From IMG/VR virus record IMGVR_UViG_3300047393_000100: a stretch of DNA of 39,982 nt; one strand, 5' to 3'. The first letter of the stretch is position 1, and each line of letters begins with the position of its first letter. Below, one piece after another: positions 734 to 39,982 of this stretch. This stretch comes from a virus (Duplodnaviria; Heunggongvirae; Uroviricota; Caudoviricetes). Under the pieces are notes generated by a model. The model worked only from the letters and a program-made list of their open reading frames with translations, did not search any database and was not told where the DNA came from. The position numbers and the translations under genes were made by a program.

Positions 734-1231
734 ATGATAAAACCGAAGACATTAAATCAAGAGGTTGTTAGTGTAATAAATAAAAGTATTGCATTTGAAT
801 ATACGTCACATCTATTTTGGAATGCTGCATCTAATTGGTGTGCAAGTAAAGGATATAATACAGCTGCTGCATATTATGCAAATGAATCCTATTCTGAATT
901 AAAACATGTAAAAACTTTACAAGAATTTTTACTAGGATGGAATGTTGAACCAGCGATCCCCGCTGTAGAAACAGTATATAAATTTGATAGCCTACCCGAT
1001 ACTGTAGAAAAATCATATCAATTAATGCTTGCAATTTTCGATAACTATGTTGATAATTCTCAGTCTATTTTTGCAATTGACCTATCAACATTTGATTTTT
1101 TACAACAATTTAGATTAAGACAAGTTGAAGCACTTGCAATTTATTCTAATATATTAAGTGGATTAGAATTAATAGATATGAATAATAAATTAGATTTATT
1201 ACACTTTGAAGAAATATATTTAAAAGCATAA
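734..1231 (+). CDS. Ferritin-like protein with degenerate ferroxidase centre
   Basis: Aligns by eye to FtnA (SNWCASKGYNTAAAYY..ELKH, TFDFLQQF..Q); several iron ligands are substituted. Confidence 0.8.
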   Translation: MIKPKTLNQEVVSVINKSIAFEYTSHLFWNAASNWCASKGYNTAAAYYANESYSELKHVKTLQEFLLGWNVEPAIPAVETVYKFDSLPDTVEKSYQLMLAIFDNYVDNSQSIFAIDLSTFDFLQQFRLRQVEALAIYSNILSGLELIDMNNKLDLLHFEEIYLKA

Positions 1232-1779
1232 TGAAAAAAGTAAAATTATTTGAAGAATTTTTAAATGAAAGTTCTACTTGGGAAAATCTTTGTAAAAAAT
1301 CAAAGGTTATGTTTGGCGAATGGGTAATAGACGCATTAACTGAAGATGACATGGCCAAAATCATTGATTTAAAAGAGGCTGATAAATTAGCTAAAAAAAG
1401 ATATGGTGAATTTGGATTTGCTACTCTTGACCTTGATGAAATGCAAGAACTTATTAACAGATATCCTAAATTAGTAAAGGAATCATTGGTAAATGAAGCT
1501 AAAGATTCTACGAGAGAAGAATTAATGGATTTGTTAGAAACTAAATACAAAATCAAAACTGTTAGAACTTCTGAAGAATTCAATGGTCAAACTGAAGGAA
1601 TTTGGATTGCAGCCGATAACGAAGAAGAATTAAGCGGTAATAGAATGTTTGATTATTACAATCGTTCAGCAAAATATACGAATGGTGTACTAAAACAACT
1701 TAGAACAGCAGTTGAAAAAACAGGTTGGTGGTTCGAATGGAATGATCCAGGAACAATTATGATTTGGCCTAAAAATTAA
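1231..1779 (+). CDS. Putative capsid-internal protein, MKKVKLFEEFLNE leader, two modules
   Basis: Shared leader; internal LVKESLVNE-A linker; starts in a TAATG overlap with the ferritin stop. Confidence 0.7.
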   Translation: MKKVKLFEEFLNESSTWENLCKKSKVMFGEWVIDALTEDDMAKIIDLKEADKLAKKRYGEFGFATLDLDEMQELINRYPKLVKESLVNEAKDSTREELMDLLETKYKIKTVRTSEEFNGQTEGIWIAADNEEELSGNRMFDYYNRSAKYTNGVLKQLRTAVEKTGWWFEWNDPGTIMIWPKN

Positions 1780-1790
1780 TAAATAAAGAT

Positions 1791-1964
1791 ATGAAATATA
1801 TACAATTATTTGAAGAATTCATTAATGAAACTGAAATTGTTTATCATGATTACGATTTTCTAGGCATGCAAGCACAGATGGCAAATATGACAAGAGAAGA
1901 ATGGATTGCACATTATGGAACCGCGACTATCGGTTCTGGTATTGATGAAAAAAAAGAAGTATAA
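1791..1964 (+). CDS. 57-aa protein with MKYIQLFEEFINE leader (not in ORF track)
   Basis: Translated by hand: MKYIQLFEEFINETEIVYHDYDFLGMQAQMANMTREEWIAHYGTATIGSGIDEKKEV; ATG 1791, TAA 1962-1964. Confidence 0.75.
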   Translation: MKYIQLFEEFINETEIVYHDYDFLGMQAQMANMTREEWIAHYGTATIGSGIDEKKEV

Positions 1965-2459: not shown

Positions 2460-2975
2460 ATGATAGTAGACAGAATATCCTTAAATATTGCACTAAAATA
2501 TCTTAATCAATTTCAACAAAATGAGGGAGAGGTTATTGATATACTTTTTACGTATAGGGATCAAGTAAATCCATTTACAAAAACTATGAAATTTGATAAT
2601 ATGGAAACATTAATATCGTTCGTTGATCGATATGCACCGTTAGTTGCATTCCAAGATATTGATTGCCAAGTAACATATTTATATCAAATTCAATCTTTTT
2701 CCATAATTAAAAATGGAACTGATAAAAACAAGGTGTACTATAATATAAATAACTTCACAACAAGTAGTACAAATATTAATCAAATATCTTTAATAGGATT
2801 AAATGATGGATATTTACCAGACATTGCCGAAGTTACACATGCATTTGTAGGAATTAAAATAAATGAATATATTTTAAATCAATTAGACTACATCGATTGC
2901 GGATATATTGAAATACATTATCCTGAGGCAATTTTAGAATTGGAAACACTATACAATAAATATAAACAAATATAA
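2460..2975 (+). CDS. Hypothetical protein
   Basis: 171-aa ORF in a tight operon with its neighbours; no family recognised. Confidence 0.6.
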
Positions 2976-5900
2976 TGGCACAAGACAATTTACAAGACTC
3001 AGAAATGAGAGGCCCTTATGGAGAATATAATCCGCTTTATCCAGGAGATCTTGGTAGAGCATTATATCATCCGGAGATGGATTATAACTTAGACCTAATT
3101 GGTCAAGTTATTCAAGGCTTTAGAGTGATGGGTACGAATGGTGATGGTAGCATAAATATAGATGATGATACTGAAAAGGTATTAAAACTATATATTGTTA
3201 AAATTACAGATACTGCCCTAATATCAGCTGGAGCTCCGGTTGGAGATAGAGTATGGATCCCTACTGATAAGATTGGAACCGATGAAGGACCTCAAGGATT
3301 TCAAGGAGATAGAGGATTTCAGGGGTTTCAGGGAGCTAGAGGGTTTCAAGGAGACAGAGGGTTTCAAGGAGCCAAAGGAGACCAAGGATTCCAAGGAGCT
3401 CAAGGTTCACTAGGAGCCGTTGGAGCACAGGGATTTCAAGGAGAACAAGGATTTCAAGGAGCTAGCGGATTTCAGGGGTTTCAGGGAGTTAGAGGGTTTC
3501 AAGGATTTCAAGGAGATCAAGGAGACTTAGGATTTCAAGGTAATCAGGGTCTTAAAGGAGATCAAGGATTTAGAGGAGACCAAGGTGCAAGAGGAGACCA
3601 AGGATTCCAGGGTAATCAGGGTTTTCAAGGTAATCAAGGAGCCAAAGGAGATCAAGGTTTTCAAGGTAATCAGGGTCTTAAAGGAGACCAAGGTTTTAAA
3701 GGAGACCAAGGTTTTAAAGGAGACCAAGGTCTTAAAGGAGATCAAGGATTCCAAGGTAATCAGGGTCTTAAAGGAGACCAAGGTCTTAAAGGAGATCAAG
3801 GCTTTAAAGGAGACCAAGGAGCCAAAGGAGACCAAGGATTCCAAGGTATTCAAGGTTCTAAAGGGGACCAAGGATTCCAAGGTAATCAAGGTTTTAAAGG
3901 AGATCAAGGGGCCAAGGGAGACCAAGGATTCCAAGGTAATCAAGGAGCCAAGGGAGATCAAGGATTCCAAGGATTCCAAGGTAATCAAGGAGCCAAGGGA
4001 GACCAAGGATTCCAAGGTAATCAAGGAGCCAAGGGAGACCAAGGTTTTCAAGGAGATCAAGGAGCCAAGGGAGATCAAGGAGCTAATGGAGATCAAGGAG
4101 CCAAAGGAGACCAAGGATTTAAAGGAGACCAAGGATTCCAAGGTCTTAAAGGAGATCAAGGTCTTAAGGGAGACCAAGGTTTTCAAGGAGATCAAGGAGC
4201 CAAAGGAGACCAGGGATTTAAAGGAGACCAAGGATTTAAAGGAGACCAAGGATTTAAAGGAGATATCGGATTCCAAGGATATCAAGGTAATACCGGTAGT
4301 CAAGGTAGTAGAGGATTCCAAGGAGACCAAGGTTTTCAAGGAGATATGGGTGACCAAGGGTTTCAAGGTCAGAGTGGTTCTGTAAATGGACAAACATTTT
4401 ATATGAACGAATCCGTTATTATAGTTAATAATGGAGGTGGCGCAAACGATCTTAATGAAATCTCTCCAATTCCAACCATTGGATCACAACAGGTTGTTAC
4501 TGCAACATTAACTGCATTACAGTCTGATGTATTATTAACACAATTTATTACACCCGCCGGATTAGGAGTTGCTGTAGTTCCATCCGGAATACAACAATTT
4601 AAGATGCACTTTACAAAGGCGGATGAATCACATTTAATACAAGTATATGTAAAAATAACACAGACGAATGCGAGTGGAACTCCTATTGCAGTATGGGGAA
4701 CATCAACACCAAATTTAATAGGATGGGACACTAGTCCTTTAATACCAGTTGACGTTTATCAAGATATATTTATACCATCAAAATACGTAGATCCAACTGA
4801 TAGGGTATTAGTTCAATTATACGCAATTAACGATGATAATCAATCTAGGACAATTAAATTTTACACAGAGGGTATTACTGATTATTCATATATAATTTCA
4901 ACATTAGGAGCAACTGAAGGTCCTACAGGTCCTCAAGGTCCTCAAGGATATCAAGGTCTTAAAGGAGACCAAGGATTTCAAGGTCCTAAAGGAGACCAAG
5001 GATTTCAAGGAAATCAAGGATTTCAAGGTCCTAAAGGAGATCAAGGATTCCAAGGTAATCAGGGTCTTAAAGGAGACCAGGGTTTTAAAGGAGACCAGGG
5101 TTTTAAAGGAGATCAAGGATTTCAAGGATTTCAAGGTCTTAAAGGAGATCAAGGTCTTAAAGGAGATCAAGGTCTTAAAGGAGATCAAGGATTCCAAGGT
5201 CTTAAAGGAGATCAGGGTTTTAAAGGAGATCAAGGATTCCAAGGTAATCAAGGTCCTAAAGGAGATCAGGGATTCCAAGGTAATCAAGGGGCAAAGGGAG
5301 ATCAAGGTTTAGTTGGAGCACAAGGATTCCAGGGAGATCGAGGATTTCAAGGATTTCAAGGATTTCAAGGTTTAGTTGGAGCACAAGGTCTTAAAGGAGA
5401 TCAAGGTTCAGTTGGAGCACAGGGTCTTAAAGGAGATCAAGGATTTACAGGAGCACAGGGTCTTAAAGGAGATCAAGGATTTCAAGGAGATCAAGGTCTC
5501 AAAGGAGATCAAGGTCTCAAAGGAGACCAAGGATTTACAGGAGCACAAGGTCTTAAAGGAGACCAAGGATTCCAAGGAGATCAAGGCCTTAAAGGAGACC
5601 AAGGATTCCAAGGAGATAAAGGATTTACAGGAGATCAAGGATTTCAAGGAGATCAAGGATTTACAGGAAACCAAGGATTCCAAGGAAATCAAGGTCTTAA
5701 AGGAGATCAAGGATTTCAAGGAGATCAAGGATTTCAGGGTAATACTGGAACTGCGGCATTAGAATTATCATATGAATATATTTGGAGTGATGCAAATAAT
5801 GCTAGTACATATCCTGGACTTAATAAAATTGCAGTAAATGGCGAGCCAGATACCTTTTCAGACGCAGGAGCCTTCCATTCGATATCAGCAAATGGTGTTG

Positions 5901-8233
5901 ATATATCATCCATATTAAACGCAATTGGAAATGTAGGTGCAGTTAATAAGGCACAGTTTAAAATTACAAAGTCTAATGATATAACAAAATACTTATTATA
6001 TAATATTACTAGTGTATCAACAAATACATCACCTAGTAAATGGTTTCAAGTTAATCTAATTTCACAAACAGCTCGCATATATCCTAATCAATTTGTTAAT
6101 GGAGACTTAGTTAAATTAAGTTTTATTTTAAATGGTAATACTGGACATCAGGGTGCTATAGGTGATCAAGGGTTTAATGGCCCTACTGGAGATCAGGGTC
6201 TTACTGGAGATCAGGGGTTTAAAGGAGATCAAGGTGATATAGGATTTCAGGGTCTTACTGGATTCCAAGGAACTACAGGAGATCAAGGTTTTACAGGAGA
6301 TCAAGGTTTTACAGGAAATCAAGGACCTATTGGTTTTCAAGGAAATCAAGGATCAATCGGAGCACAGGGCGAAAGAGGTTTCCAAGGTTTAGTTGGGGCA
6401 CAAGGTTCAATCGGAGCACAGGGTTCAACTGGATTCCAAGGAACTAAAGGAGATCAAGGCGAAAGAGGTTTCCAAGGTTTAGTTGGAGCGCAAGGTTTAA
6501 CTGGATTCCAAGGAACTAAAGGAGATCAAGGTGACAGAGGTTTTCAAGGTTTAGTTGGAGCACAAGGTTCAACTGGATTCCAAGGAACTAAAGGAGATCA
6601 AGGTATTAAAGGAGACCAAGGTTTAGTTGGAGCACAGGGATTTCAAGGAGATAGAGGTTTCCAAGGTTTTATTGGATTCCAAGGAACTAAAGGAGATCAA
6701 GGATTAGTTGGACCACAAGGTCCAACTGGATTTCAAGGTGATATTGGAGCACAGGGTCTAACTGGATTCCAAGGTAATGTTGGAGCACAGGGAAGACAAG
6801 GTCCAATTGGAGCGCAAGGTCCAACTGGATTTCAAGGTAATATTGGAGCGCAAGGTCCAACTGGATTCCAAGGAATTAAAGGAGATCAAGGTGACAGAGG
6901 TTTCCAAGGTAATATTGGAGCGCAAGGTCCAACTGGATTCCAGGGTAATATTGGAGCACAAGGTCCAACTGGATTCCAAGGTAATATTGGAGCACAAGGT
7001 CCAACTGGATTCCAAGGTAATATTGGAGCGCAAGGTCCAACTGGATTCCAAGGATTAGACGGAGCGCAAGGAAGACAAGGTCCAACTGGAGCACAAGGTC
7101 CAATTGGATTTCAAGGTATTGGATATTATGGATTAACTAGTACTACTTCAGTTGGAACTGGCAGTTCTGGTTCTAAAGTATTTACAGTAAATCAAGCAGC
7201 TGGAACAAATGCATTTATAATAGGAACAACAGTTAAAGCTATTTCAGGTTCATCTTATTTGATTGGTGATATTACAGCGTATGTTGGAACAACACTTACC
7301 ATAAATGCAGTTGAATTTTCAAATACAGGCGGCGCGGCTAGTTGGACATTTTCAGTAATGGGTAATAAAGGTAATCAGGGTATTACAGGAGCACAAGGTC
7401 CAACCGGACCACAAGGACAACAAGGTCCAACTGGTCCAACTGGAGCACAAGGGTCGCAAGGTCCAACTGGTCCAACTGGAGCACAAGGTCTAACTGGAGC
7501 ACAAGGGTCGCAAGGTCCAATTGGTCCAACTGGAGCACAAGGTTCACAGGGTCCAATTGGTCCAACGGGAGCACAGGGTTCACAAGGTCCAATTGGTCCA
7601 ACTGGATTCCAAGGAGATAGAGGTTTCCAAGGACTTACTGGATTCCAAGGTGTTATTGGAGCAACTGGACCACAAGGACGACAAGGTCCTACTGGTCCAA
7701 CGGGAGCACAGGGGTCGCAAGGTCCAACTGGTTTAACTGGATTCCAAGGAGATAGAGGTTTCCAAGGATTTACTGGAGCACAGGGACGGCAAGGTCCAAC
7801 CGGAGTACAGGGTACTCAAGGGGCAGGAATTCCATTAGATAACTTAACTCTAACATATTCATTAGGAGTAGGAACGCCTGCGTCTGGATTAACAGGAGAT
7901 ATTAGAGCGACTGGAGATATCACCGCGTATTATTCTTCCGATAGACGATTAAAAACAGATATTGTTAATATTGATAATCCATTAGAAAAAATAATGCAAA
8001 TTGGAGGTTATAACTTTAATTGGATTGATATGCCAGATATACATGGACATGTCGGCGCAGATATTGGAGTAATTGCACAAGAAATTGAAGCGATTCTACC
8101 TGATATCGTTGCAACTAGACGTACTGGATATAAAGCAGTTCAATACGAAAAAATAGTGGCATTACTAATCGAAGGTATTAAAGCACAGCAAATTCAAATA
8201 GATGCATTAAACAAAAGAATAGATAATTTATAA
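2975..8233 (+). CDS. Collagen-like tail/virion fibre with C-terminal intramolecular chaperone (peptidase S74-like)
   Basis: Four Gly-X-Y tracts ([12 protein letters not shown]) separated by three globular inserts; C-terminal SDRRLKTDI...GVIAQEIE...[13 protein letters not shown] chaperone signature. Confidence 0.9.
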
Positions 8234-14094: not shown

Positions 14095-15177
14095 ATGCGA
14101 AAAACGAAAAAAACGAATGCTATTTTAACATTAGTTGAAGAGGCTACTATACCTGGAACTTTGCATAATAACATGTATTTATTACAAAGATTGGTAGATA
14201 AAGGAAAATTGGAAGATTATCAAAGATTTATTACACAATTTCCAAATGGACAATTAGCAGCAATGTTACTTAAATATTTTGAAAGTCTGTCAGAGGATGA
14301 ATCTGATATATTAGCAGATGCTCTATATTCGTTAGAAGGTCCTCATCAATTAACAAAAGAGTATTATGCTGACAGAAATAATGTATGGGGTAGAATGTTT
14401 GACATGCAGGTTAGAGGATCAGGAAAGGGAGAAGTAATAATTGCATGGCTAATAAAAAATTCAAGCATACAAGGAGGTACCGAATCATTTGATGTTTTAA
14501 TTGAAGATAAAAAATATGAGGTAAAAGATTGGTCAAATCAAAAAAATTCATCAATATTGACTGGTGTGAAATCGAAGGTTTCTAATTTTGAATTTTGGAG
14601 AGAGATTGTAGATACTATTAGAAGATTAGATAAATTAACAGGATATTCAACATCGCCTAAGTTTAATTTTAAAGATTATTTCGATGATGATATATGTAAT
14701 TTGGTAGATATTATTTTAGAAAGACAAGGTATGATACTTTCTGGTGAATTTAATACAACAGATATTAAAAACTTTAAAAAATTCTATCAAAACATAAATT
14801 CTATTAATACTGAAATAATAGGATTTACAAATGTAATTCTTAGAGGACCTAATCAAGTTCCAATTGAATTAAGCATTGATCCCATTCATTTAAAAGATAT
14901 TTTAAATGAGTCATTAACAATACAAAGATCAAGCACTGATAATACATTTATTTATATTTTAACCGAACTGCGCAGACTAAAGTATGCAAGAAATCCAGAT
15001 GAACTGTACGCTGATATGCAATATGCTGTAAATAAAATAGTGGAAGGAATAACATATATTGTATATAGAGAAAATCAAATTAATATAACATGTGACTTTG
15101 TGCCACATGCTGTGAGTATATCAAGTTTAAGATTTCTTGAAAAAAGTATAGCTACCAAACATATAATTGATATATAA
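14095..15177 (+). CDS. Putative PD-(D/E)XK nuclease-fold protein
   Basis: GKGEVIIAW...FDVLIEDKKYEVK: E, D and ExK arrangement of restriction-like nucleases. Confidence 0.45.
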   Translation: MRKTKKTNAILTLVEEATIPGTLHNNMYLLQRLVDKGKLEDYQRFITQFPNGQLAAMLLKYFESLSEDESDILADALYSLEGPHQLTKEYYADRNNVWGRMFDMQVRGSGKGEVIIAWLIKNSSIQGGTESFDVLIEDKKYEVKDWSNQKNSSILTGVKSKVSNFEFWREIVDTIRRLDKLTGYSTSPKFNFKDYFDDDICNLVDIILERQGMILSGEFNTTDIKNFKKFYQNINSINTEIIGFTNVILRGPNQVPIELSIDPIHLKDILNESLTIQRSSTDNTFIYILTELRRLKYARNPDELYADMQYAVNKIVEGITYIVYRENQINITCDFVPHAVSISSLRFLEKSIATKHIIDI

Positions 15178-15180
15178 ATA
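15169..15180 (+). promoter_or_regulatory. Putative late promoter GATATATAAATA
   Basis: Immediately upstream of the leader-bearing gene cluster. Confidence 0.4.
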
Positions 15181-15198
15181 TAAATTATATGTAATCAT

Positions 15199-15381
15199 AT
15201 GAGTCAAGAAGAATGGAATGTATATATTGATACTGGATTTGTTCCTCATTATTTTATAAAAGAAATAGTGGAGAGTATTAAACTTGGCCATGTGTTAACA
15301 CCCAAGCACTTACAAATCTATATTACACATAGCCAAATAATAGAAATATATCTAAACACGAAAAACGATGAAAAAAATTAA
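15199..15381 (+). CDS. Hypothetical protein
   Basis: 60-aa ORF after a GATATATAAATA motif, overlapping the next gene start. Confidence 0.55.
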   Translation: MSQEEWNVYIDTGFVPHYFIKEIVESIKLGHVLTPKHLQIYITHSQIIEIYLNTKNDEKN

Positions 15382-16150
15382 ATTATTCGAAGAATTTATT
15401 AATGAAATTAAAGGAAGAAATAACACAGATCCTGAAGAAATAATAGATGATATTAACTCTAGAGTTAACTTTGGAAGTGCTGCAATCAAAGACACTAAAG
15501 ATGGACCGTCTATTGTTATTTACCTTGATAAAAAATCTGAAAATCATAGTACAATAGTAAAAGAACTTGAAAAAATATATACTGATGCTATTAAATATGA
15601 AAAAGGCAACTCAAGTAAAGATATCATTGTCTTTAGAATCAATGAAGAATTTGTTAATGAAATTAATATAGAAGATACCGAAATAACAGAAACTATATCT
15701 GAATTTTATGAATTGCAGATGCAAATCTTACAACTACAATCTGAGTTAAAACAAAAACAGGCGCAGTTTAAAAAGTTTGATACAAATATTCAACCAATAA
15801 TCGATGGAATGAAAGAAACTGGTGATAAGTTAGGGGTTACTGAAAAGTATGTTGTAAAGGTTTCAAGATTTGGATATGAAAGAACTACTGCATCATATAA
15901 AGATGCGTTTGAATTAGCGCTATCTAAAGTAAATGGAGCTACTCAAAAAATATTAAAGGAAGCGTTAGTTGCAACCGAAAAGGTAGGAAGTGTTGCAAAT
16001 TCATACACGATTGACCAAATGAATGAAGCGAATATTTTTCAAAAGATTATATCAACGTTAAAGGATATTTCCAGTAAATTTGTTAATATGTTTAAAAAGG
16101 AATCTAAAAATATTGATGCTGCAAATAATGATTTAAAAAAAATAGTATAA
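15368..16150 (+). CDS. Putative capsid-internal polyprotein, MKKIKLFEEFINE leader
   Basis: Leader plus internal INEEFVNE-I and QMNE-A sites; coiled-coil second module. Confidence 0.7.
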   Translation: MKKIKLFEEFINEIKGRNNTDPEEIIDDINSRVNFGSAAIKDTKDGPSIVIYLDKKSENHSTIVKELEKIYTDAIKYEKGNSSKDIIVFRINEEFVNEINIEDTEITETISEFYELQMQILQLQSELKQKQAQFKKFDTNIQPIIDGMKETGDKLGVTEKYVVKVSRFGYERTTASYKDAFELALSKVNGATQKILKEALVATEKVGSVANSYTIDQMNEANIFQKIISTLKDISSKFVNMFKKESKNIDAANNDLKKIV

Positions 16151-16701
16151 TGAAAAAAATTAAACTATTCGAAGAATTTATGAATGAATCAGTAAATGAA
16201 AAGAAAGCAGCATATGATTACGGATGTGCAATGATATACTTTGAATTTCCAGAAATGGAAGATATTCACGTTAAAATAGAGAAAGATGATGTATTTGTGG
16301 ATCCTAAAGATTCTACATTTGGACTAGAAACTGAACCGCATTGCACATTATTATATGGATTACATGCTGATGTGGCTCTTAACACTATTAAAAAAATAGT
16401 AGATGGATTTGAATTTGGTGAATGTACTATTAAAGAGGCTTCACTTTTTGAAAATGAAAAATTTGATGTACTTAAATTTGATGTAACTGGAAGTGGATTA
16501 CACGATTGCAATTCTGCTTTATCAAAATTACCACATACTACTGATTATCCTAACTACCATCCACATATGACAGTGGCATACCTTAAAAATGGTATGGGTA
16601 AAAAATATGTAGATTTATTAGGAACTGAAGAAAGAACCTTAAAACCATCATATATTGTTTATAGCCAACCTGATGGTACCAAAACCAAGATATCTTTATA
16701 A
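16150..16701 (+). CDS. 2H phosphoesterase, Acb1/T4 gp57B-like, with MKKIKLFEEFMNE leader
   Basis: Two HxT motifs (EPHCTLLYGL, YHPHMTVAY), YGCAM N-motif, DYPNYHPH. Confidence 0.75.
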   Translation: MKKIKLFEEFMNESVNEKKAAYDYGCAMIYFEFPEMEDIHVKIEKDDVFVDPKDSTFGLETEPHCTLLYGLHADVALNTIKKIVDGFEFGECTIKEASLFENEKFDVLKFDVTGSGLHDCNSALSKLPHTTDYPNYHPHMTVAYLKNGMGKKYVDLLGTEERTLKPSYIVYSQPDGTKTKISL

Positions 16702-16703
16702 GA

Positions 16704-16711
16704 GATATATA
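16704..16711 (+). promoter_or_regulatory. Putative late promoter GATATATA
   Basis: In the 35-nt gap before the 16737 gene. Confidence 0.35.
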
Positions 16712-16736
16712 AATGTAATAAACATAAAACAATATA

Positions 16737-17669
16737 ATGAAAAGAGTAAAGTTATTTGAAGAATTTATAAATGAATCTAAAGGATTAGAATTAGTACATG
16801 CATATGATAAAGATGGTACGATGTATGGTACTGGAGAACTTGTTAAAAAACAAGGTTCAAAATCTTTAATTAGATTTGACAGTGAAACTGAAAAATGGTT
16901 TGACAATAAAGACATTAAATTAGTAGAATCTAAATATAATGGAAATGTTGCCGGTGATGCCGCTGAATATATTGCTAAAGAATTATCGCAATACGTTAAA
17001 GGTATTATAAACCAATCTAATAATAATGTTACTTATTTTCATTTAAAAGATAAATCATATAAATCTAAAGTTATTAAAACCCTAAAGGATATTTATGGTT
17101 TAGATGCACAAGATGGTGGAACTCAATTCTCACCTTCACCAACTATCAAATTTGATAATGACGTAATATTGGAATCAAATATCGACGAAGCTACTACATC
17201 TTGGAGTAAAATGATGAAAGGTGTTAAGGGTGGAGATGGTGGACCTTGGAGTTTGGTTGCTATTGAATATGGAAAAGTAGTTGGTCAAAAAAATAGCATA
17301 AAGGTTAGAGACATATTACCTGCTGAATTTGAAGAATTTCGTAAACAATTTCCAAAGGCAAAAATTCATATTGAAGATGCTGGCGGTGGAGTAGTTTGGA
17401 ATGAATCTATTGTTAATGAAGCTCAAATCGGAGATAAATTAACTAAGAAATTTACAGAAGAAACTGGAATCTCAGTATGGGACAAAGTAACTTTAAAATC
17501 AGAATCTGGAATTTGGGTCGTTGCAAGATTATGGGCACCAAAGGATGATGGTGGTATGAATCCTGGTTTACATATTGAATTAACTAAAGGTAGTTCAAGA
17601 GAACACTTTCAGGTAATGGATGATAATGGAAATTTAAGCCAATTTGGAAAAGAAATCACAAAGAAATAA
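16737..17669 (+). CDS. Putative capsid-internal polyprotein, four small modules
   Basis: MKRVKLFEEFINE leader; linkers KLVE-S, VILE-SNIDE-A, VWNE-SIVNE-A. Confidence 0.7.
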   Translation: MKRVKLFEEFINESKGLELVHAYDKDGTMYGTGELVKKQGSKSLIRFDSETEKWFDNKDIKLVESKYNGNVAGDAAEYIAKELSQYVKGIINQSNNNVTYFHLKDKSYKSKVIKTLKDIYGLDAQDGGTQFSPSPTIKFDNDVILESNIDEATTSWSKMMKGVKGGDGGPWSLVAIEYGKVVGQKNSIKVRDILPAEFEEFRKQFPKAKIHIEDAGGGVVWNESIVNEAQIGDKLTKKFTEETGISVWDKVTLKSESGIWVVARLWAPKDDGGMNPGLHIELTKGSSREHFQVMDDNGNLSQFGKEITKK

Positions 17670-17935
17670 TGAAACACATTAAATTATACGAGGAATTTGT
17701 AAATGAAAAAGAATTTACAGAGGATCAAAGAAAAGAATTAGCAAGTAAAGGATTTGCATTGCCAGATGGAAGCTTTCCAATCGAAAATGTAGAAGATCTT
17801 AAGAATGCAATTCAAGCATATGGTAGAGCAGGAGACCAATCTGCAGCCGCAAAACATATTGCAAAACGCGCAAAGGCATTAGGACAAGAAGATCTAATAC
17901 CAACCAGTGATGATTTTCAAAAAAGTTTAAAATAA
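17669..17935 (+). CDS. Leader-bearing small protein, DUF6582-like domain
   Basis: MKHIKLYEEFVNE leader; ALPDGSFPIENVEDLKNAIQAYGRA...HIAKRAKALG resembles a phage head-associated domain as I recall it. Confidence 0.6.
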   Translation: MKHIKLYEEFVNEKEFTEDQRKELASKGFALPDGSFPIENVEDLKNAIQAYGRAGDQSAAAKHIAKRAKALGQEDLIPTSDDFQKSLK

Positions 17936-17937
17936 GT

Positions 17938-18447
17938 ATGAAAAAAGTAAGATTATACGAAGAATTCATTAATGAATCAAAGGATGTATTTCCAAATGAA
18001 ATCATAGGAAATGATAATATTCTTTTTAAGAAGGAGTGGGAAAAAATGAATGGTGGTAAACTTGCTGCCAAATATAACCAATATTTTAAAGGTTATGATA
18101 TTGATACAGGTGGACGTATCTTTAATACAGTAGATCAGTTAGAAAAATATATAAAAGCTACTGAACTTTCAAATAATCAATATAACAAATATAAGTATAT
18201 GCCAGAGATTCCAATTAAAGAATCTTTAGATGAAGCAGATGGTAGAGATACTCTAGGTGAATTACAAGAAATGGCATTAGGTCAACTTGAGAGAATAGCA
18301 GACTATGCTAATATGATTAAAGATCGCATAAACAGTGGAGAATCTCTAGAATCATGGATGTTTTCTCAATTAACTATTTCTTTAGAAAATCTAAATGCAA
18401 TACATGATTCAATGGACGGTAACGATAAAAACCCAAACGATAATTAA
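17938..18447 (+). CDS. Putative capsid-internal polyprotein, two modules
   Basis: MKKVRLYEEFINE leader; PIKE-SLDE-A linker; helical C-module EMALGQLERIADYA...LESWMFSQL. Confidence 0.7.
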   Translation: MKKVRLYEEFINESKDVFPNEIIGNDNILFKKEWEKMNGGKLAAKYNQYFKGYDIDTGGRIFNTVDQLEKYIKATELSNNQYNKYKYMPEIPIKESLDEADGRDTLGELQEMALGQLERIADYANMIKDRINSGESLESWMFSQLTISLENLNAIHDSMDGNDKNPNDN

Positions 18448-18449
18448 TT

Positions 18450-18671
18450 ATGAAAAAACTAATCTTAGCAATCCTATTACTATCAACACTTAGTTGTGCA
18501 ACTGTATTCCATAATGGACCAATTACAGAATATCAAAGAACCAAACCTCAAACAGGAGAACCTCAAAGAAAGGTAAAGGTATTACCACTAGTGGCAGACT
18601 TAATTATTTTCTGGCCAGCAACTGTGGTAGATTTTGCAACAGGTGCAATATACTTACCAAAAGAAAAATAG
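18450..18671 (+). CDS. Small lipoprotein
   Basis: MKKLILAILLLSTLS-C lipobox; VADLIIFWPATVVDFATGAIY resembles small Bacteroidota lipoproteins as I recall them. Confidence 0.7.
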   Translation: MKKLILAILLLSTLSCATVFHNGPITEYQRTKPQTGEPQRKVKVLPLVADLIIFWPATVVDFATGAIYLPKEK

Positions 18672-18693: not shown

Positions 18694-18720
18694 AAGGGAT
18701 CCCCAACAGGATCCCTTTTT
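18694..18720 (+). terminator. Intrinsic terminator
   Basis: AAGGGATCC-CCAACA-GGATCCCTT followed by a T run. Confidence 0.85.
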
Positions 18721-26781: not shown

Positions 26782-28752
26782 ATGTCTAAGAAAACAAATA
26801 CACCTTTCATCGATCAATTCGGAGAAGATTTAACTAAAATGGCAAGTGAAGGTAAATTGGATCCTATCATCGGTAGGGAAAAGGAAGTTTATCGTATATG
26901 TCAAATTCTTTCAAGAAGAAAGAAAAACAATCCTATTATTTTAGGAGATCCAGGGGTTGGTAAAACTGCATTAGTGGAAGCCATTGCTCAGCGAATTGTT
27001 GATAAACAAGTTGCAATGACTCTTCTTAATAAGAGAATCGTTTCGCTTAATATTTCAAATATAGTCGCTGGTACAAAATACCGTGGTGAATTTGAGGAAC
27101 GCATGAAAAATATAGTGGATGAATTAAAAGAAAATAGAGATGTTATTGTCTTTATCGACGAAATTCATACCATTGTAGGTGCAGGTGGTGTTAGTGGATC
27201 TTTAGATGCTAGTAATATACTAAAACCTGCGTTAGCAAGAGGACAGGTACAATGTATTGGCGCAACCACGTTGGATGAGTATAGAGAAAATATTGAAAAG
27301 GATGGTGCACTTACCAGAAGATTTCAAGAAGTTTTTATAGATCCACCCTCAATTGAAGATACTATTGAAATTCTTAATAGAATTAAACCTAATTATGAAG
27401 ATTATCATGCAGTATCGTATAGCGATGAGGCAATAAAGGCATGTGTTACTTTATCTGAAAGATATATTACACAAAGAGAATTACCAGATAAAGCCATTGA
27501 TGTAATGGATGAGGCAGGTGCAAAGGTACATTTAAAGGAGGTTAAAATACCAGAAAGTATTAAAGAACTTGAAATTGAAGCTGAAAAGTATAAGGCATCT
27601 AAATTAATTGCAGTTGAACAACAGGACTACGAGAAAGCTGGTAAATTTAGAGATTTAGAATTAGCAAAAAAAGAAGAAATCCAAACTTCAACAAAGGAAT
27701 GGGAAACTTCTTTACGCGATAATAAAAAACAGGTAACTTACGAAGATATTGCTGAAACTATTTCACAAACTACTGGAATTCCAATTACAAGAATGACTGA
27801 CGATGAAAATAGAATCATTGTTGAAATGGAAAAGGAATTAAAATCCATGATTATCGGTCAGGATCTTGCAGTTGAAGGATTATGTAGAGTTATTAAAAGA
27901 AGTAGAACAGGTGTAAGTTCATCTAAAAAACCAATTGGATCATTTATGTTTATTGGACCTACAGGTGTAGGTAAAACTGAAATGGTTAAAGCTTTAACTG
28001 AATATTATTTTGGAAGCGAAGAGGCATTGATCAGAATCGATATGTCAGAATATCAGGAAAAATTCAATGTAAGTAGACTGATAGGTTCTCCTCCAGGATA
28101 TGTTGGATATGAAGAAGGAGGACAACTAACAGAACAAGTTCGTCGTAAACCATATTCAGTAGTGTTATTTGATGAGGTTGAGAAAGCACATCCAGATATT
28201 TTTAATACATTACTACAGGTATTAGATGAAGGTAGATTAACAGATACATCGGGTAGAATAATTGATTTTACAAATACTATTATTATTATGACTTCAAATA
28301 TTGGTGCTAAGCGAGTTGCAGAGTTCGGGGCAGGAATCGGGTTTAATAGTACTACATCATCATCATCTCATAAGATGGAAATGGAAACAGTTATTAGAAA
28401 AGAACTTAAAAATAAGTTTGCTCCAGAATTTTTGAATAGATTAGATGATATTGTTTTATTTGATGGATTAAAACAAGAACATGTATTACAAATTGCAGAT
28501 ATTGAAATTAATAAAGTAATTGAAAGAATGGCATCACAAGACTATTCAATTAAACTTACAAAAACTGCCATGATTTTCTTAGCAGAAAAAGGGTATGATG
28601 CACAATATGGCGCTAGGCCATTAAAAAGAGCAGTACAGACATACGTTGAAGATTTATTAGCAGATTCTATTATTATGGGACAAGTTATTAAAGGTTCTAA
28701 GGTATATACCATTTCGCATAAAAAAGGAGATGAGAAACTTTCCATAAAGTAA
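26782..28752 (+). CDS. clpC: ClpC-type AAA+ unfoldase without the N-terminal domain
   Basis: Two NBDs (GDPGVGKT/FIDEIH; GPTGVGKT/LFDEVEK), short UVR-like M-domain (QQDYEKAGKFRD), ClpP-docking IGF loop (GAGIGFNS). Confidence 0.9.
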   Translation: MSKKTNTPFIDQFGEDLTKMASEGKLDPIIGREKEVYRICQILSRRKKNNPIILGDPGVGKTALVEAIAQRIVDKQVAMTLLNKRIVSLNISNIVAGTKYRGEFEERMKNIVDELKENRDVIVFIDEIHTIVGAGGVSGSLDASNILKPALARGQVQCIGATTLDEYRENIEKDGALTRRFQEVFIDPPSIEDTIEILNRIKPNYEDYHAVSYSDEAIKACVTLSERYITQRELPDKAIDVMDEAGAKVHLKEVKIPESIKELEIEAEKYKASKLIAVEQQDYEKAGKFRDLELAKKEEIQTSTKEWETSLRDNKKQVTYEDIAETISQTTGIPITRMTDDENRIIVEMEKELKSMIIGQDLAVEGLCRVIKRSRTGVSSSKKPIGSFMFIGPTGVGKTEMVKALTEYYFGSEEALIRIDMSEYQEKFNVSRLIGSPPGYVGYEEGGQLTEQVRRKPYSVVLFDEVEKAHPDIFNTLLQVLDEGRLTDTSGRIIDFTNTIIIMTSNIGAKRVAEFGAGIGFNSTTSSSSHKMEMETVIRKELKNKFAPEFLNRLDDIVLFDGLKQEHVLQIADIEINKVIERMASQDYSIKLTKTAMIFLAEKGYDAQYGARPLKRAVQTYVEDLLADSIIMGQVIKGSKVYTISHKKGDEKLSIK

Positions 28753-29937: not shown

Positions 29938-30609
29938 ATGAATTACGGAAAAGAATTTGAAAAATACGCAATGAGTGACCATGGTGTTAGCTCAATGAAT
30001 TTACATTATGCAAAAAAGAATTTAGAAAATTCAATGACTCCATATATTTTAGAAGAGAGAGAATTGAGGGTTACTCAAATGGATATTTTTTCAAGATTAA
30101 TGATGGATAGATTATTATGGGTTGCAGGAACTGTAAATGATAATATGTCAACCGTTGTTCAAGCACAATTAATGTTTTTAGATTCAGTAGATACTAGAGA
30201 TATTACAATGCACATTGATTCAGGAGGAGGGAGTGTAAAGTCTGGACTTTCTATGGTAGATGTTATGGAATATATTAAATCTGATATACGTACAGTCAAC
30301 ACAGGAATGGCCGCCTCTATGGGTTCTGTATTATTAGGAGCTGGAACTAAAGGCAAGAGAAGTTCACTAAGACACTCTACCACTATGTTACACCAATCTT
30401 CGGGAGGATTCAGCGGAAATATTCAAGACGCTGAAATTGACTGGGCAGAATGGCAAAAGGTTAACAAAGAATTATTTAATCTTTTAGGACAATACTGCGG
30501 TAAAAAACCAGATCAAGTTATGAAAGATGCTACAAGAGATATGTGGTTAAACGCAGAAGAGGCATTGAAATACGGAATCATCGATGAGATTATAATTAGT
30601 AAAAGATAA
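29938..30609 (+). CDS. clpP: ATP-dependent Clp protease proteolytic subunit
   Basis: DIFSRLMMDR, IDSGGGSV, GMAASMGS (Ser), LHQSSGG (His), ATRDMWLNAEEALKYGIIDEI; MNYGKEFEKYA N-terminus resembles Bacteroidota ClpP. Confidence 0.93.
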   Translation: MNYGKEFEKYAMSDHGVSSMNLHYAKKNLENSMTPYILEERELRVTQMDIFSRLMMDRLLWVAGTVNDNMSTVVQAQLMFLDSVDTRDITMHIDSGGGSVKSGLSMVDVMEYIKSDIRTVNTGMAASMGSVLLGAGTKGKRSSLRHSTTMLHQSSGGFSGNIQDAEIDWAEWQKVNKELFNLLGQYCGKKPDQVMKDATRDMWLNAEEALKYGIIDEIIISKR

Positions 30610-38780: not shown

Positions 38781-39982
38781 ATGTCAATTACACCGTACAT
38801 TTCTACTTCGGGGCCACAGGGTTTTACAGGGTTTCAAGGTTTTCAAGGTACTGCTGGAGATCAAGGTCTTATCGGAGATCAAGGAGAACAGGGAATTCAA
38901 GGAACACAAGGTCTTAAAGGAGATCAAGGTTTCCAAGGTATTACTGGAACAACTGGAGCAACTGGAGATCAAGGTCTTAAAGGAGATCAAGGTTTCCAAG
39001 GTATTACTGGAACACAAGGTCTTAAAGGAGATCAAGGTTTCCAAGGTATTACTGGAGCAACTGGAGCACAAGGTCTTCAAGGAACACAAGGAACACAAGG
39101 AATTCAAGGAACACAAGGTCTTAAAGGAGATCAAGGTTTCCAAGGTGTTACTGGAACAACTGGAGCAACTGGAGCGCAAGGTCTTAAAGGAGATCAAGGT
39201 TTCCAAGGTATTACTGGAACAACTGGAGCACAAGGTCTTAAAGGAGATCAAGGTCTTCAAGGAGAACAAGGAATTCAAGGAACACAAGGTCTTAAAGGAG
39301 ATCAAGGTTTCCAAGGTGTTACTGGAACAACTGGAGCAACTGGAGCACAAGGTCTTAAAGGAGATCAAGGTCTTCAAGGAGAACAAGGAATTCAAGGAAC
39401 ACAAGGTCTTAAAGGAGATCAAGGTTTCCAAGGTGTTACTGGAACAACTGGAGCAACTGGAGCACAAGGTCTTAAAGGAGATCAAGGTCTTCAAGGAGAA
39501 CAAGGAATTCAAGGAACGCAAGGTCTTAAAGGAGATCAAGGTTTCCAAGGTATTACTGGAACAAGTATCACGGGAGCAACTGGAGCACAAGGTCTTCAAG
39601 GAACACAAGGAACACAAGGAATTCAAGGAACACAAGGTCTTAAAGGAGATCAAGGTTTCCAAGGTGTTACTGGAACAACTGGAGCAACTGGAGCGCAAGG
39701 TCTTAAAGGAGATCAAGGTTTCCAAGGTATTACTGGAACAACTGGAGCACAAGGTCTTAAAGGAGATCAAGGTCTTCAAGGAGAACAAGGAATTCAAGGA
39801 ACACAAGGTCTTAAAGGAGATCAAGGTTTCCAAGGTGTTACTGGAACAACTGGAGCAACTGGAGCACAAGGTCTTAAAGGAGATCAAGGTCTTCAAGGAG
39901 AACAAGGAATTCAAGGAACGCAAGGTCTTAAAGGAGATCAAGGTTTCCAAGGTATTACTGGAACAAGTATCACGGGAGCAAC
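38781..39982 (+). CDS. Second collagen-like fibre protein, 3'-truncated by window end (not in ORF track)
   Basis: ATG 38781: MSITPYISTSGPQGFTGFQ..., then Gly-X-Y ([18 protein letters not shown]) with no stop codon to the end. Confidence 0.9.
   Translation, partial: MSITPYISTSGPQGFTGFQGFQGTAGDQGLIGDQGEQGIQGTQGLKGDQGFQGITGTTGATGDQGLKGDQGFQGITGTQGLKGDQGFQGITGATGAQGLQGTQGTQGIQGTQGLKGDQGFQGVTGTTGATGAQGLKGDQGFQGITGTTGAQGLKGDQGLQGEQGIQGTQGLKGDQGFQGVTGTTGATGAQGLKGDQGLQGEQGIQGTQGLKGDQGFQGVTGTTGATGAQGLKGDQGLQGEQGIQGTQGLKGDQGFQGITGTSITGATGAQGLQGTQGTQGIQGTQGLKGDQGFQGVTGTTGATGAQGLKGDQGFQGITGTTGAQGLKGDQGLQGEQGIQGTQGLKGDQGFQGVTGTTGATGAQGLKGDQGLQGEQGIQGTQGLKGDQGFQGITGTSITGA

Follow-up and report, generated by a model that had tools for sequence, protein, structure and literature searches.

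The IMG/VR virus record IMGVR_UViG_3300047393_000100 (Caudoviricetes) provides a 39,982-nt stretch of DNA, referred to here in its entirety as the window, in which seven plus-strand open reading frames (ORFs) open with a common 13-residue leader, MK[KRHY][VI][KQR]L[FY]EEF[ILMV]NE, and then continue into bodies that are unrelated to one another. These ORFs, each named for the position of its first nucleotide, are o1231, o1791, o15368, o16150, o16737, o17669, and o17938 (Table 1). A preliminary description of the window had reported this family, suggested counting its motif, and proposed that the leader, which we call the tag, is a portable address that loads small effector domains into the phage head, where they are cut apart by a protease before being injected with the DNA. 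The seven shared leaders were borne out by both the ORF list and a six-frame scan, in which the tag core, [FY][EQ][ED]F[ILMV].E, matched the window seven times and nowhere else, each time 6 residues after the ATG of one of these ORFs. The tag family is thus a real feature of the window, far above chance.

When the DNA of the seven starts was aligned, the tag codons were found to vary synonymously (TTT/TTC, GAA/GAG, and AAA/AGA), and the likeness was confined to the tag, with none 5' of the ATG and none past codon 13. Given this synonymous variation and the abrupt end of the likeness, it is the peptide that is conserved rather than a DNA repeat. Tag codons also varied, with the residues kept, across the contigs of other phages described below. 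We considered whether the shared start could instead act at the level of mRNA, as a translation enhancer or downstream box would, or reflect a recent duplication or gene conversion, and have no function as a peptide. A-rich initiation regions are frequent in AT-rich phage genes, and the DNA 5' of the seven ATGs is A-rich, but such an element would account neither for codon changes that leave the residues intact, in the window as well as between contigs, nor for the lack of likeness upstream, nor for remnants of the tag that lie deep inside ORFs as peptide motifs. We therefore find this explanation hardly credible.

All seven window tags terminate in (I/L/M/V)-N-E, which at the sequence level is the prohead protease motif hydrophobic-x-Glu. 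The motif hydrophobic-x-E-[ASG] was 4.8-fold denser in the tagged bodies than in the other ORFs of the window (12 occurrences versus 2.5 expected; Poisson P = 1e-5), and hydrophobic-N-E-[ASG] was 19-fold denser. The comparison with the internal proteins of phage T4 made in the preliminary description was accurate, since the T4 record gives MKTYQEFIAE↓A for both IPII and IPIII (the arrow marks the bond behind the Glu) and MKTFKEF...ITE↓A for IPI. The window tag, MKKIKLFEEFINE↓S, has in common with the T4 tag an initial MK, then [FY]-[QE]-E-F-I-x-E, and then a small residue. A form between the two, MIKKYLEFMKE↓S, heads a 2H enzyme of the 642-kb huge phage LR756502.

In T-even phages, the leader is the sole common feature of the internal proteins (Ips) and directs them into the scaffolding core, and at least 10 Ip families are known (PMC3012670, PMC5694885, PMC12373910); Ip1 to Ip3 are injected and inhibit type IV restriction enzymes (PMC3012670, PMC12373910). 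The window family resembles the Ips in that its small proteins, encoded by clustered genes, have nothing in common except a short N-terminal tag. It differs in that the tag is 3 residues longer and terminates in N-E.

The larger window proteins had been described as chains of small domains joined by (I/L/V/M)-x-E sites. All of the internal sites that had been named are present. One of them, QMNE220↓A in o15368, is located within a conserved module and not between modules. The chain architecture was supported by the recurrence of the modules in other phages, where they occur alone directly behind a tag or reordered in other polyproteins, with breaks at the sites. A full HMMER scan with o16737 recovered 374 representative clusters (74 to 1103 amino acids [aa]) that match at least one of its four modules, in any order. 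The starts of these matches clustered at aa 1, 60 to 62, 144 to 155, and 222 to 225, and their ends clustered at aa 66 to 72, 148 to 155, 222 to 233, and 310, such that the match borders coincide with E64, E146/E151, and E223/E228. An AlphaFold2 model of o16737, built from the full-length alignment A4, contained four compact domains (mean predicted local distance difference test score [pLDDT], 80.5; predicted template modeling score [pTM], 0.41); the low pTM indicates that the domains are not fixed relative to one another. Confidence was low at residues 67 to 71 and 141 to 153 and dipped at residues 221 to 230 (block mean, 67), and the tag was predicted to be helical at residues 7 to 14. Fold searches with this model returned nothing significant (module 1 gave a weak Hfq/Sm/Tudor-like match, with an E value of ~0.03), and AlphaFold Database clusters returned nothing telling.

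The origin of the linkers was most apparent in o15368, whose sites are E93, E98, and E220. In an alignment of 25 homologs, its internal VFRINEEFVNE aligned column for column with the N-terminal IKLFEEFVNE of stand-alone forms of 175 to 179 aa, implying that two tagged genes fused in frame. Other homologs gain further modules via SEFINE, EDFLNE, or EDFINE. With a pLDDT of 54 and a dip at aa 91 to 103, the AlphaFold2 model of o15368 did not have the quality needed for a fold search, and an Atlas search with module B returned no named family. The remaining proteins showed the same interchange of modules. The C-terminal module of o1231 stands alone behind a tag in L065 (106 aa) and is the last module of polyproteins of 270 to 385 aa in L043, L096, and L040; the body of o1791 (aa 11 to 56) lies internally, at aa 54 to 99, in a 156-aa protein of L078; and module 1 of o17938 is internal to a 227-aa protein of L036, while its module 2 directly follows a tag in L114. 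Across 399 tagged proteins, internal tag-like motifs numbered 117, compared with 31 ± 5.6 in shuffled sequences, and strict EEF-x-NE-like remnants numbered 21, compared with 1.8 ± 1.4. The remnants retain mainly the C-terminal, cleavage-like half of the tag. The bodies of the cargo proteins of G001, a relative introduced below, showed no motif enrichment, as expected given that they are mostly single modules. In these alignments and counts, the linkers are recognizable as degenerate tags, and the polyproteins as products of in-frame fusion of adjacent tagged genes.

Table 1. Tagged ORFs, their linkers, and the borders of the main cluster (window positions; the arrow marks the bond behind the numbered Glu)
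Feature	Position	Strand	Description
o1231	1231-1779	+	Tagged two-module polyprotein, 182 aa; tag at 1231-1269
o1231 linker, KLVKE84↓SLVNE89↓A	1468-1497	+	Tag-like; C-terminal module starts at aa 90
o1791	1791-1964	+	Tagged small protein, 57 aa; tag at 1791-1829
o15199	15199-15381	+	Untagged, 60 aa; opens the cluster; TATAAATA upstream at 15173-15180
o15368	15368-16150	+	Tagged two-module protein, 260 aa; tag at 15368-15406
o15368 internal tag remnant, RINEEFVNE98↓I	15635-15661	+	Module B is aa 99-260
o16150	16150-16701	+	Tagged putative 2H phosphoesterase, 183 aa; tag at 16150-16188, then second site, SVNE17↓K
o16737	16737-17669	+	Tagged four-module polyprotein, 310 aa; tag at 16737-16775
o16737 linker, KLVE64↓S	16917-16928	+	
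o16737 linker, VILE146↓SNIDE151↓A	17163-17189	+	
o16737 linker, VWNE223↓SIVNE228↓A	17394-17420	+	
o17669	17669-17935	+	Tagged small protein, 88 aa, DUF6582-like body; tag at 17669-17707
o17938	17938-18447	+	Tagged two-module protein, 169 aa; tag at 17938-17976
o17938 linker, PIKE95↓SLDE99↓A	18211-18234	+	
o18450	18450-18671	+	Untagged, 73 aa, lipoprotein-like (lipobox-like LSC near N terminus); ends the cluster
Hairpin	18694-18717		Terminator-like, two-way; closes the cluster

The tag is widespread among uncultured phages. A degenerate DNA pattern for the tag, scanned over IMG/VR, matched at least 120 stretches, and these held at least 276 complete tagged ORFs, at least 224 of them distinct, with bodies in at least 90 unrelated families and, among the matches listed, lengths of 39 to 1170 aa. 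In three further contigs, the core occurred 9, 11, and 7 times, on a single strand in each, and controls with the reversed pattern gave 0 matches. In G001 (IMG/VR contig 3300012346_000380; 256 kb, with terminal repeats and estimated to be complete), all 15 of the six-frame core matches were ORF N termini, and all were on one strand. The uncultured phage LR756500 (462 kb), the nearest GenBank relative by capsid protein, had ten core matches. The core was absent from the genomes of the cultured phages Molly, pT24, MaF61, and PAU; the window cluster had no match among GenBank phages by megablast or tblastn; an exact 32-mer taken from the window had no match in IMG/VR; and the tag strings were not found in the literature searched. 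The protease-scaffold protein of the tag-bearing phages, described next, had more than 3,700 homologs at E ≤ 1e-20 in a metagenome protein set, indicating that the clade is abundant.

G001 is syntenic with the window over ~50 kb, with proteins that are 40 to 80% identical, and its head genes resemble those of T4. They encode, in order, a T4-type portal (Portal_T4, PF07230), a tagged acidic protein of 125 aa, a protease-scaffold fusion, and a Gp23-type major capsid protein (PF07068). The preliminary description had suggested identifying the prohead protease and asking whether scaffold and capsid sites share the motif of the tag; both were found in these relatives. The fusion protein (604 aa; L123:100-1914:-) has an N-terminal Peptidase_S77/S80 domain followed by a long scaffold-like tail, and a Peptidase_S77 match above the cutoff was obtained in 8 of the 8 large tag-bearing contigs tested. 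Among homologs in this clade (P0182 to P0301), a single ORF of 590 to 660 aa joins the gp21-type protease to a scaffold-like tail of ~430 aa. Right behind the protease domain stands AELKRVNE↓A/S, followed by a variable linker; R-V-N-E is more than 95% conserved among 118 full-length homologs. The capsid protein begins with MA-x-LINE↓A in G001, G003, and G007; around residue 44 it also carries KLYE↓D, which is conserved. The acidic core protein of G001, between portal and protease, opens with MKKLIKTFEQFIFE↓A; a tagged small acidic protein occupies this position, that of T4 gp67/68, in G003, G004, and G007 as well, and G007 has a second tagged gene between the scaffold and capsid protein genes. 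T4 gp21 cleaves behind Glu, for instance in ITE and LTE sites, and proteases of the phiKZ type process themselves at the C-terminal side, as would the junction described here (PMC5694885). T4 gp23 carries FLTE↓A. Independently of the cargo, three head proteins thus point to hydrophobic-N-E as the probable motif of the protease. The S77 family extends beyond the tag family, in that Maribacter phage Molly_1 (L142; L144) gave a borderline S77 match (27.1 bits) and encodes an untagged 2H enzyme while having no match to the tag core.

The recurrence of the motif in head genes bears on a second explanation, in which the tag is never cleaved and serves either as a recognition or degradation signal for another machine, such as a phage ClpC-ClpP, or as an oligomerization helix. 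Both the window and G001 encode a ClpC-like ATPase and ClpP, and the tag is predicted to be helical. However, the same core occurs in T4 Ips as their capsid-targeting sequence, and the tag and its terminal hydrophobic-N-E recur at the protease-scaffold junction and at the N terminus of the capsid protein. A degradation signal would also not predict that internal remnants keep mainly the half that looks like a cleavage site. We judge this second explanation to be highly unlikely. The ClpC-like ATPase (26782-28752) and ClpP (29938-30609) of the window are 73% and 79% identical, respectively, to their G001 counterparts; since these lie far from the G001 head module, ClpC/ClpP is probably not the head maturation protease, despite the PHROGs label of ClpP.

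Beyond the tag itself, the likeness to T-even phages extends to the gp21-type protease, the T4-type portal, and the Gp23 capsid protein of the relatives and to the probable anti-defense character of the cargo. In contrast to the arrangement in these relatives, T4 encodes the protease (gp21) and the scaffold (gp22) in separate genes. Phages phiKZ, 201phi2-1, and SPN3US offer a second comparison: they are likewise jumbo phages with many head-internal proteins that are cut after Glu, often at several sites, and their protease is autoprocessed C-terminally; the G001 protease also matches Peptidase_S80. The S80 processing of their inner-body and ejection proteins occurs at (S/A/G)-x-E or A-x-E, with a small P3 residue, whereas the P3 residue here is hydrophobic, as in T4. 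In the literature searched, no single portable leader on many unrelated proteins is described for these three phages, although SPN3US has two diverged paralogs with an identical 15-residue N terminus.

Some of the cargo could be assigned to families. The o16150 protein has the two H-x-T motifs of the 2H fold and matched PF13563 (2_5_RNA_ligase2; 28.7 bits, cutoff 27) and phrog_755. Its match to the Acb1 family (PF23474) fell under the cutoff (22.7 bits, cutoff 27), whereas its G001 ortholog (72% identical) was just above it (28.3 bits). In a pairwise comparison with T4 gp57B, the second motif alone aligned, and the match to the Acb1 structure 7t26 in the PDB was weak (E = 0.54). We place o16150 near Acb1 as a putative 2H phosphodiesterase, with an RNA-repair cyclic phosphodiesterase as the alternative. 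The 2H enzyme was the second most common cargo family among the matches listed, and it is encoded without a tag in Maribacter phage Molly. In G001, a cluster of nine tagged genes (L138:1499-8577, minus strand) encodes a Tad3-domain protein, a 2H enzyme, a GNAT acetyltransferase, and an AAA_33/Zeta-like kinase. Tagged Tad3 proteins (PF25185, cutoff 27) scored 75.2 bits in L069 (6015-6770) and 68 bits in G001 (L138:7816-8577); the window itself lacks a Tad3 homolog. Inhibition of the Thoeris sensor ThsB by Tad3 has been validated (PMC13728456). Other tagged bodies matched R2K ATP-grasp (22 bits, under the cutoff), DUF5661, and Lcl_C. Finally, o17669 weakly matched phrog_80 (E = 0.0065), which covers the C-terminal part of head maturation protease proteins, and an Atlas feature search scored it at 0.90 with a cluster that has DUF6582 in 29% of its members. 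Its resemblance to DUF6582, which is known from head protease and scaffold proteins, is a lead only.

The nature of the cargo separates this system from those known. The repertoire is far larger than that of the T-even Ips (at least 90 families among the matches listed); it includes enzymes (2H phosphodiesterase, GNAT, kinase, and ATP-grasp) as well as Tad3; and its modules can be strung into polyproteins with degenerate-tag linkers. Acb1 (T4 gp57B, which counters the cyclic oligonucleotide-based antiphage signaling system) and Tad3 (which counters Thoeris) are expressed in the cytoplasm. The family matches obtained here are to the 2H/Acb1 fold and the Tad3 domain, but the homologs carry a head-targeting tag, implying delivery as premade protein. 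The polyvalent proteins of phages and conjugative elements also combine several unrelated conflict domains in one polypeptide that is delivered with incoming DNA; as described (PMC5512222), they are large and multidomain, without a common head-targeting tag, in contrast to the small modules and tag-derived, protease-site-like linkers of the present family.

The cargo also helps in weighing a third explanation, which accepts that the tag targets the prohead core but holds that most tagged proteins are disposable parts of the core or scaffold, like T4 gp67/gp68, that are degraded and expelled at maturation. The tag is indeed carried by the small acidic protein at the gp67/68 position (G001, G003, G004, and G007), and T4 shreds its core proteins via multiple hydrophobic-x-E sites (PMC5694885). 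Nevertheless, the tagged proteins include enzymes and a validated family of defense inhibitors (2H/Acb1-like, Tad3, GNAT, and kinase proteins), the modules have compact, conserved folds rather than the low complexity of a scaffold, and at least 90 unrelated families go far beyond what a scaffold needs. This third explanation therefore strikes us as quite unlikely.

Several other features of the window were noted. A homolog of o15199, the ORF that opens the main cluster, is present in G001; the ORF that ends it, o18450, had no family match in profile searches. The octamer upstream of o15199, TATAAATA, is the T4 late-promoter consensus and a candidate promoter here. Six of its 15 matches in the window lie within ~30 nt 5' of ORF starts (712, 15173, 23247 on the minus strand, 26767, 36496, and 38749), but it is not enriched (15 matches versus 11.5 expected), and a sigma-70 promoter scan revealed no excess. 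The other two tagged genes, o1231 and o1791, are flanked by an endolysin-like gene (130-699) on one side and a holin-like gene (2065-2457) on the other. In T4 (L127), ipI adjoins 57B (Acb1), and ipII/ipIII adjoin the lysozyme gene e; the window echoes this neighborhood, with an Acb1-like enzyme within the cluster and o1231/o1791 near the endolysin-like gene, although this may be coincidence. Giant collagen-like ORFs with G-x-x repeats (2975-8233 and 38781-39982), which create long spurious ORFs in alternative frames and also on the complementary strand, have glycosyltransferase-like genes close by.

Taken together, the tagged family is probably a T4-type capsid-targeting and cleavage system that carries injected cargo. 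During prohead assembly, the tag, as a predicted short helix, would bind the scaffolding core; the gp21-type (S77) prohead protease would then cut after the Glu of hydrophobic-N-E, stripping the tag, and the same cleavage at tag-derived linkers would free each module of a polyprotein inside the head. The freed modules would exit with the DNA at infection and act ahead of phage gene expression, at least in part against host defense. Polyproteins form by in-frame fusion of adjacent tagged genes, with the tag of the downstream gene persisting as a linker. Every computational test run agreed with the earlier proposal of an address tag, cleavage, and injection. Its further suggestion, that the cargo is an anti-defense payload, gained support from the Tad3 and Acb1-like proteins among the tagged cargo, although anti-defense activity itself, like packaging, cleavage, and injection, is something that we infer.

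A number of observations weigh against this T4-type reading. The likeness to the T4 tag spans ~7 residues, which is too short for statistics, and the argument from head genes rests on the relative G001. The phage collections searched contained no cultured carrier of the tag. Hydrophobic-x-E is a loose motif, the residue after the final Glu is K or E, not A/S/G alone, in ~29% of tags together, and several hydrophobic-x-E sites lie inside folded modules, where they are unlikely to be cut. In some tagged proteins, from L002, L071, L078, L083, and L084, a hydrophobic, membrane-like segment directly follows the tag, which is unexpected for soluble head cargo. Two tagged proteins are unusually large for head cargo, at 1170 aa (L050:2502-6011:-) and 831 aa (L040:5722-8214:+); neither has a Pfam match, and both may be long polyproteins. 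Most modules, as the preliminary description had anticipated in calling them uncharacterized, matched no known family or fold in family, PHROG, fold, and Atlas searches.

The broader claim that can be built on these data is that a very abundant clade of uncultured aquatic jumbo and huge phages uses the tag as an address label that can be mined and that marks hundreds of families of premade, injected cargo, including enzymes and defense inhibitors, with polyproteins formed by in-frame fusion and by retention of tags as protease-cleavable linkers. We regard the chances of this claim as evenly balanced. T-even phages already exemplify the principle. New here are its occurrence in an uncultured and abundant clade, a cargo repertoire of this size and enzymatic character, the tagged Tad3 and Acb1-like proteins, and the polyproteins with tag-derived linkers.

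Injected proteins act before phage gene expression and are thus a phage's first answer to host immunity. To our knowledge, few of them are understood, namely, Ip1 to Ip3 of T4 and the Dar proteins of P1. If the tag functions as its T4 counterpart does, injected cargo could be recognized straight from sequence by a motif of 13 residues, and if the tag is indeed an address label, a tag profile alone would yield a large catalog of anti-defense proteins that act in the first minute of infection. The tagged Tad3 protein and Acb1-like phosphodiesterase suggest that inhibitors of signaling defenses can be delivered as protein, in which case the many uncharacterized modules would be candidates for new anti-defense functions. 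Since the T4 tag has already been used for loading foreign proteins into phage heads, the tag described here may serve the same purpose. Tag-derived linkers also illustrate a simple path by which gene clusters could evolve into cleavable multieffector polyproteins.

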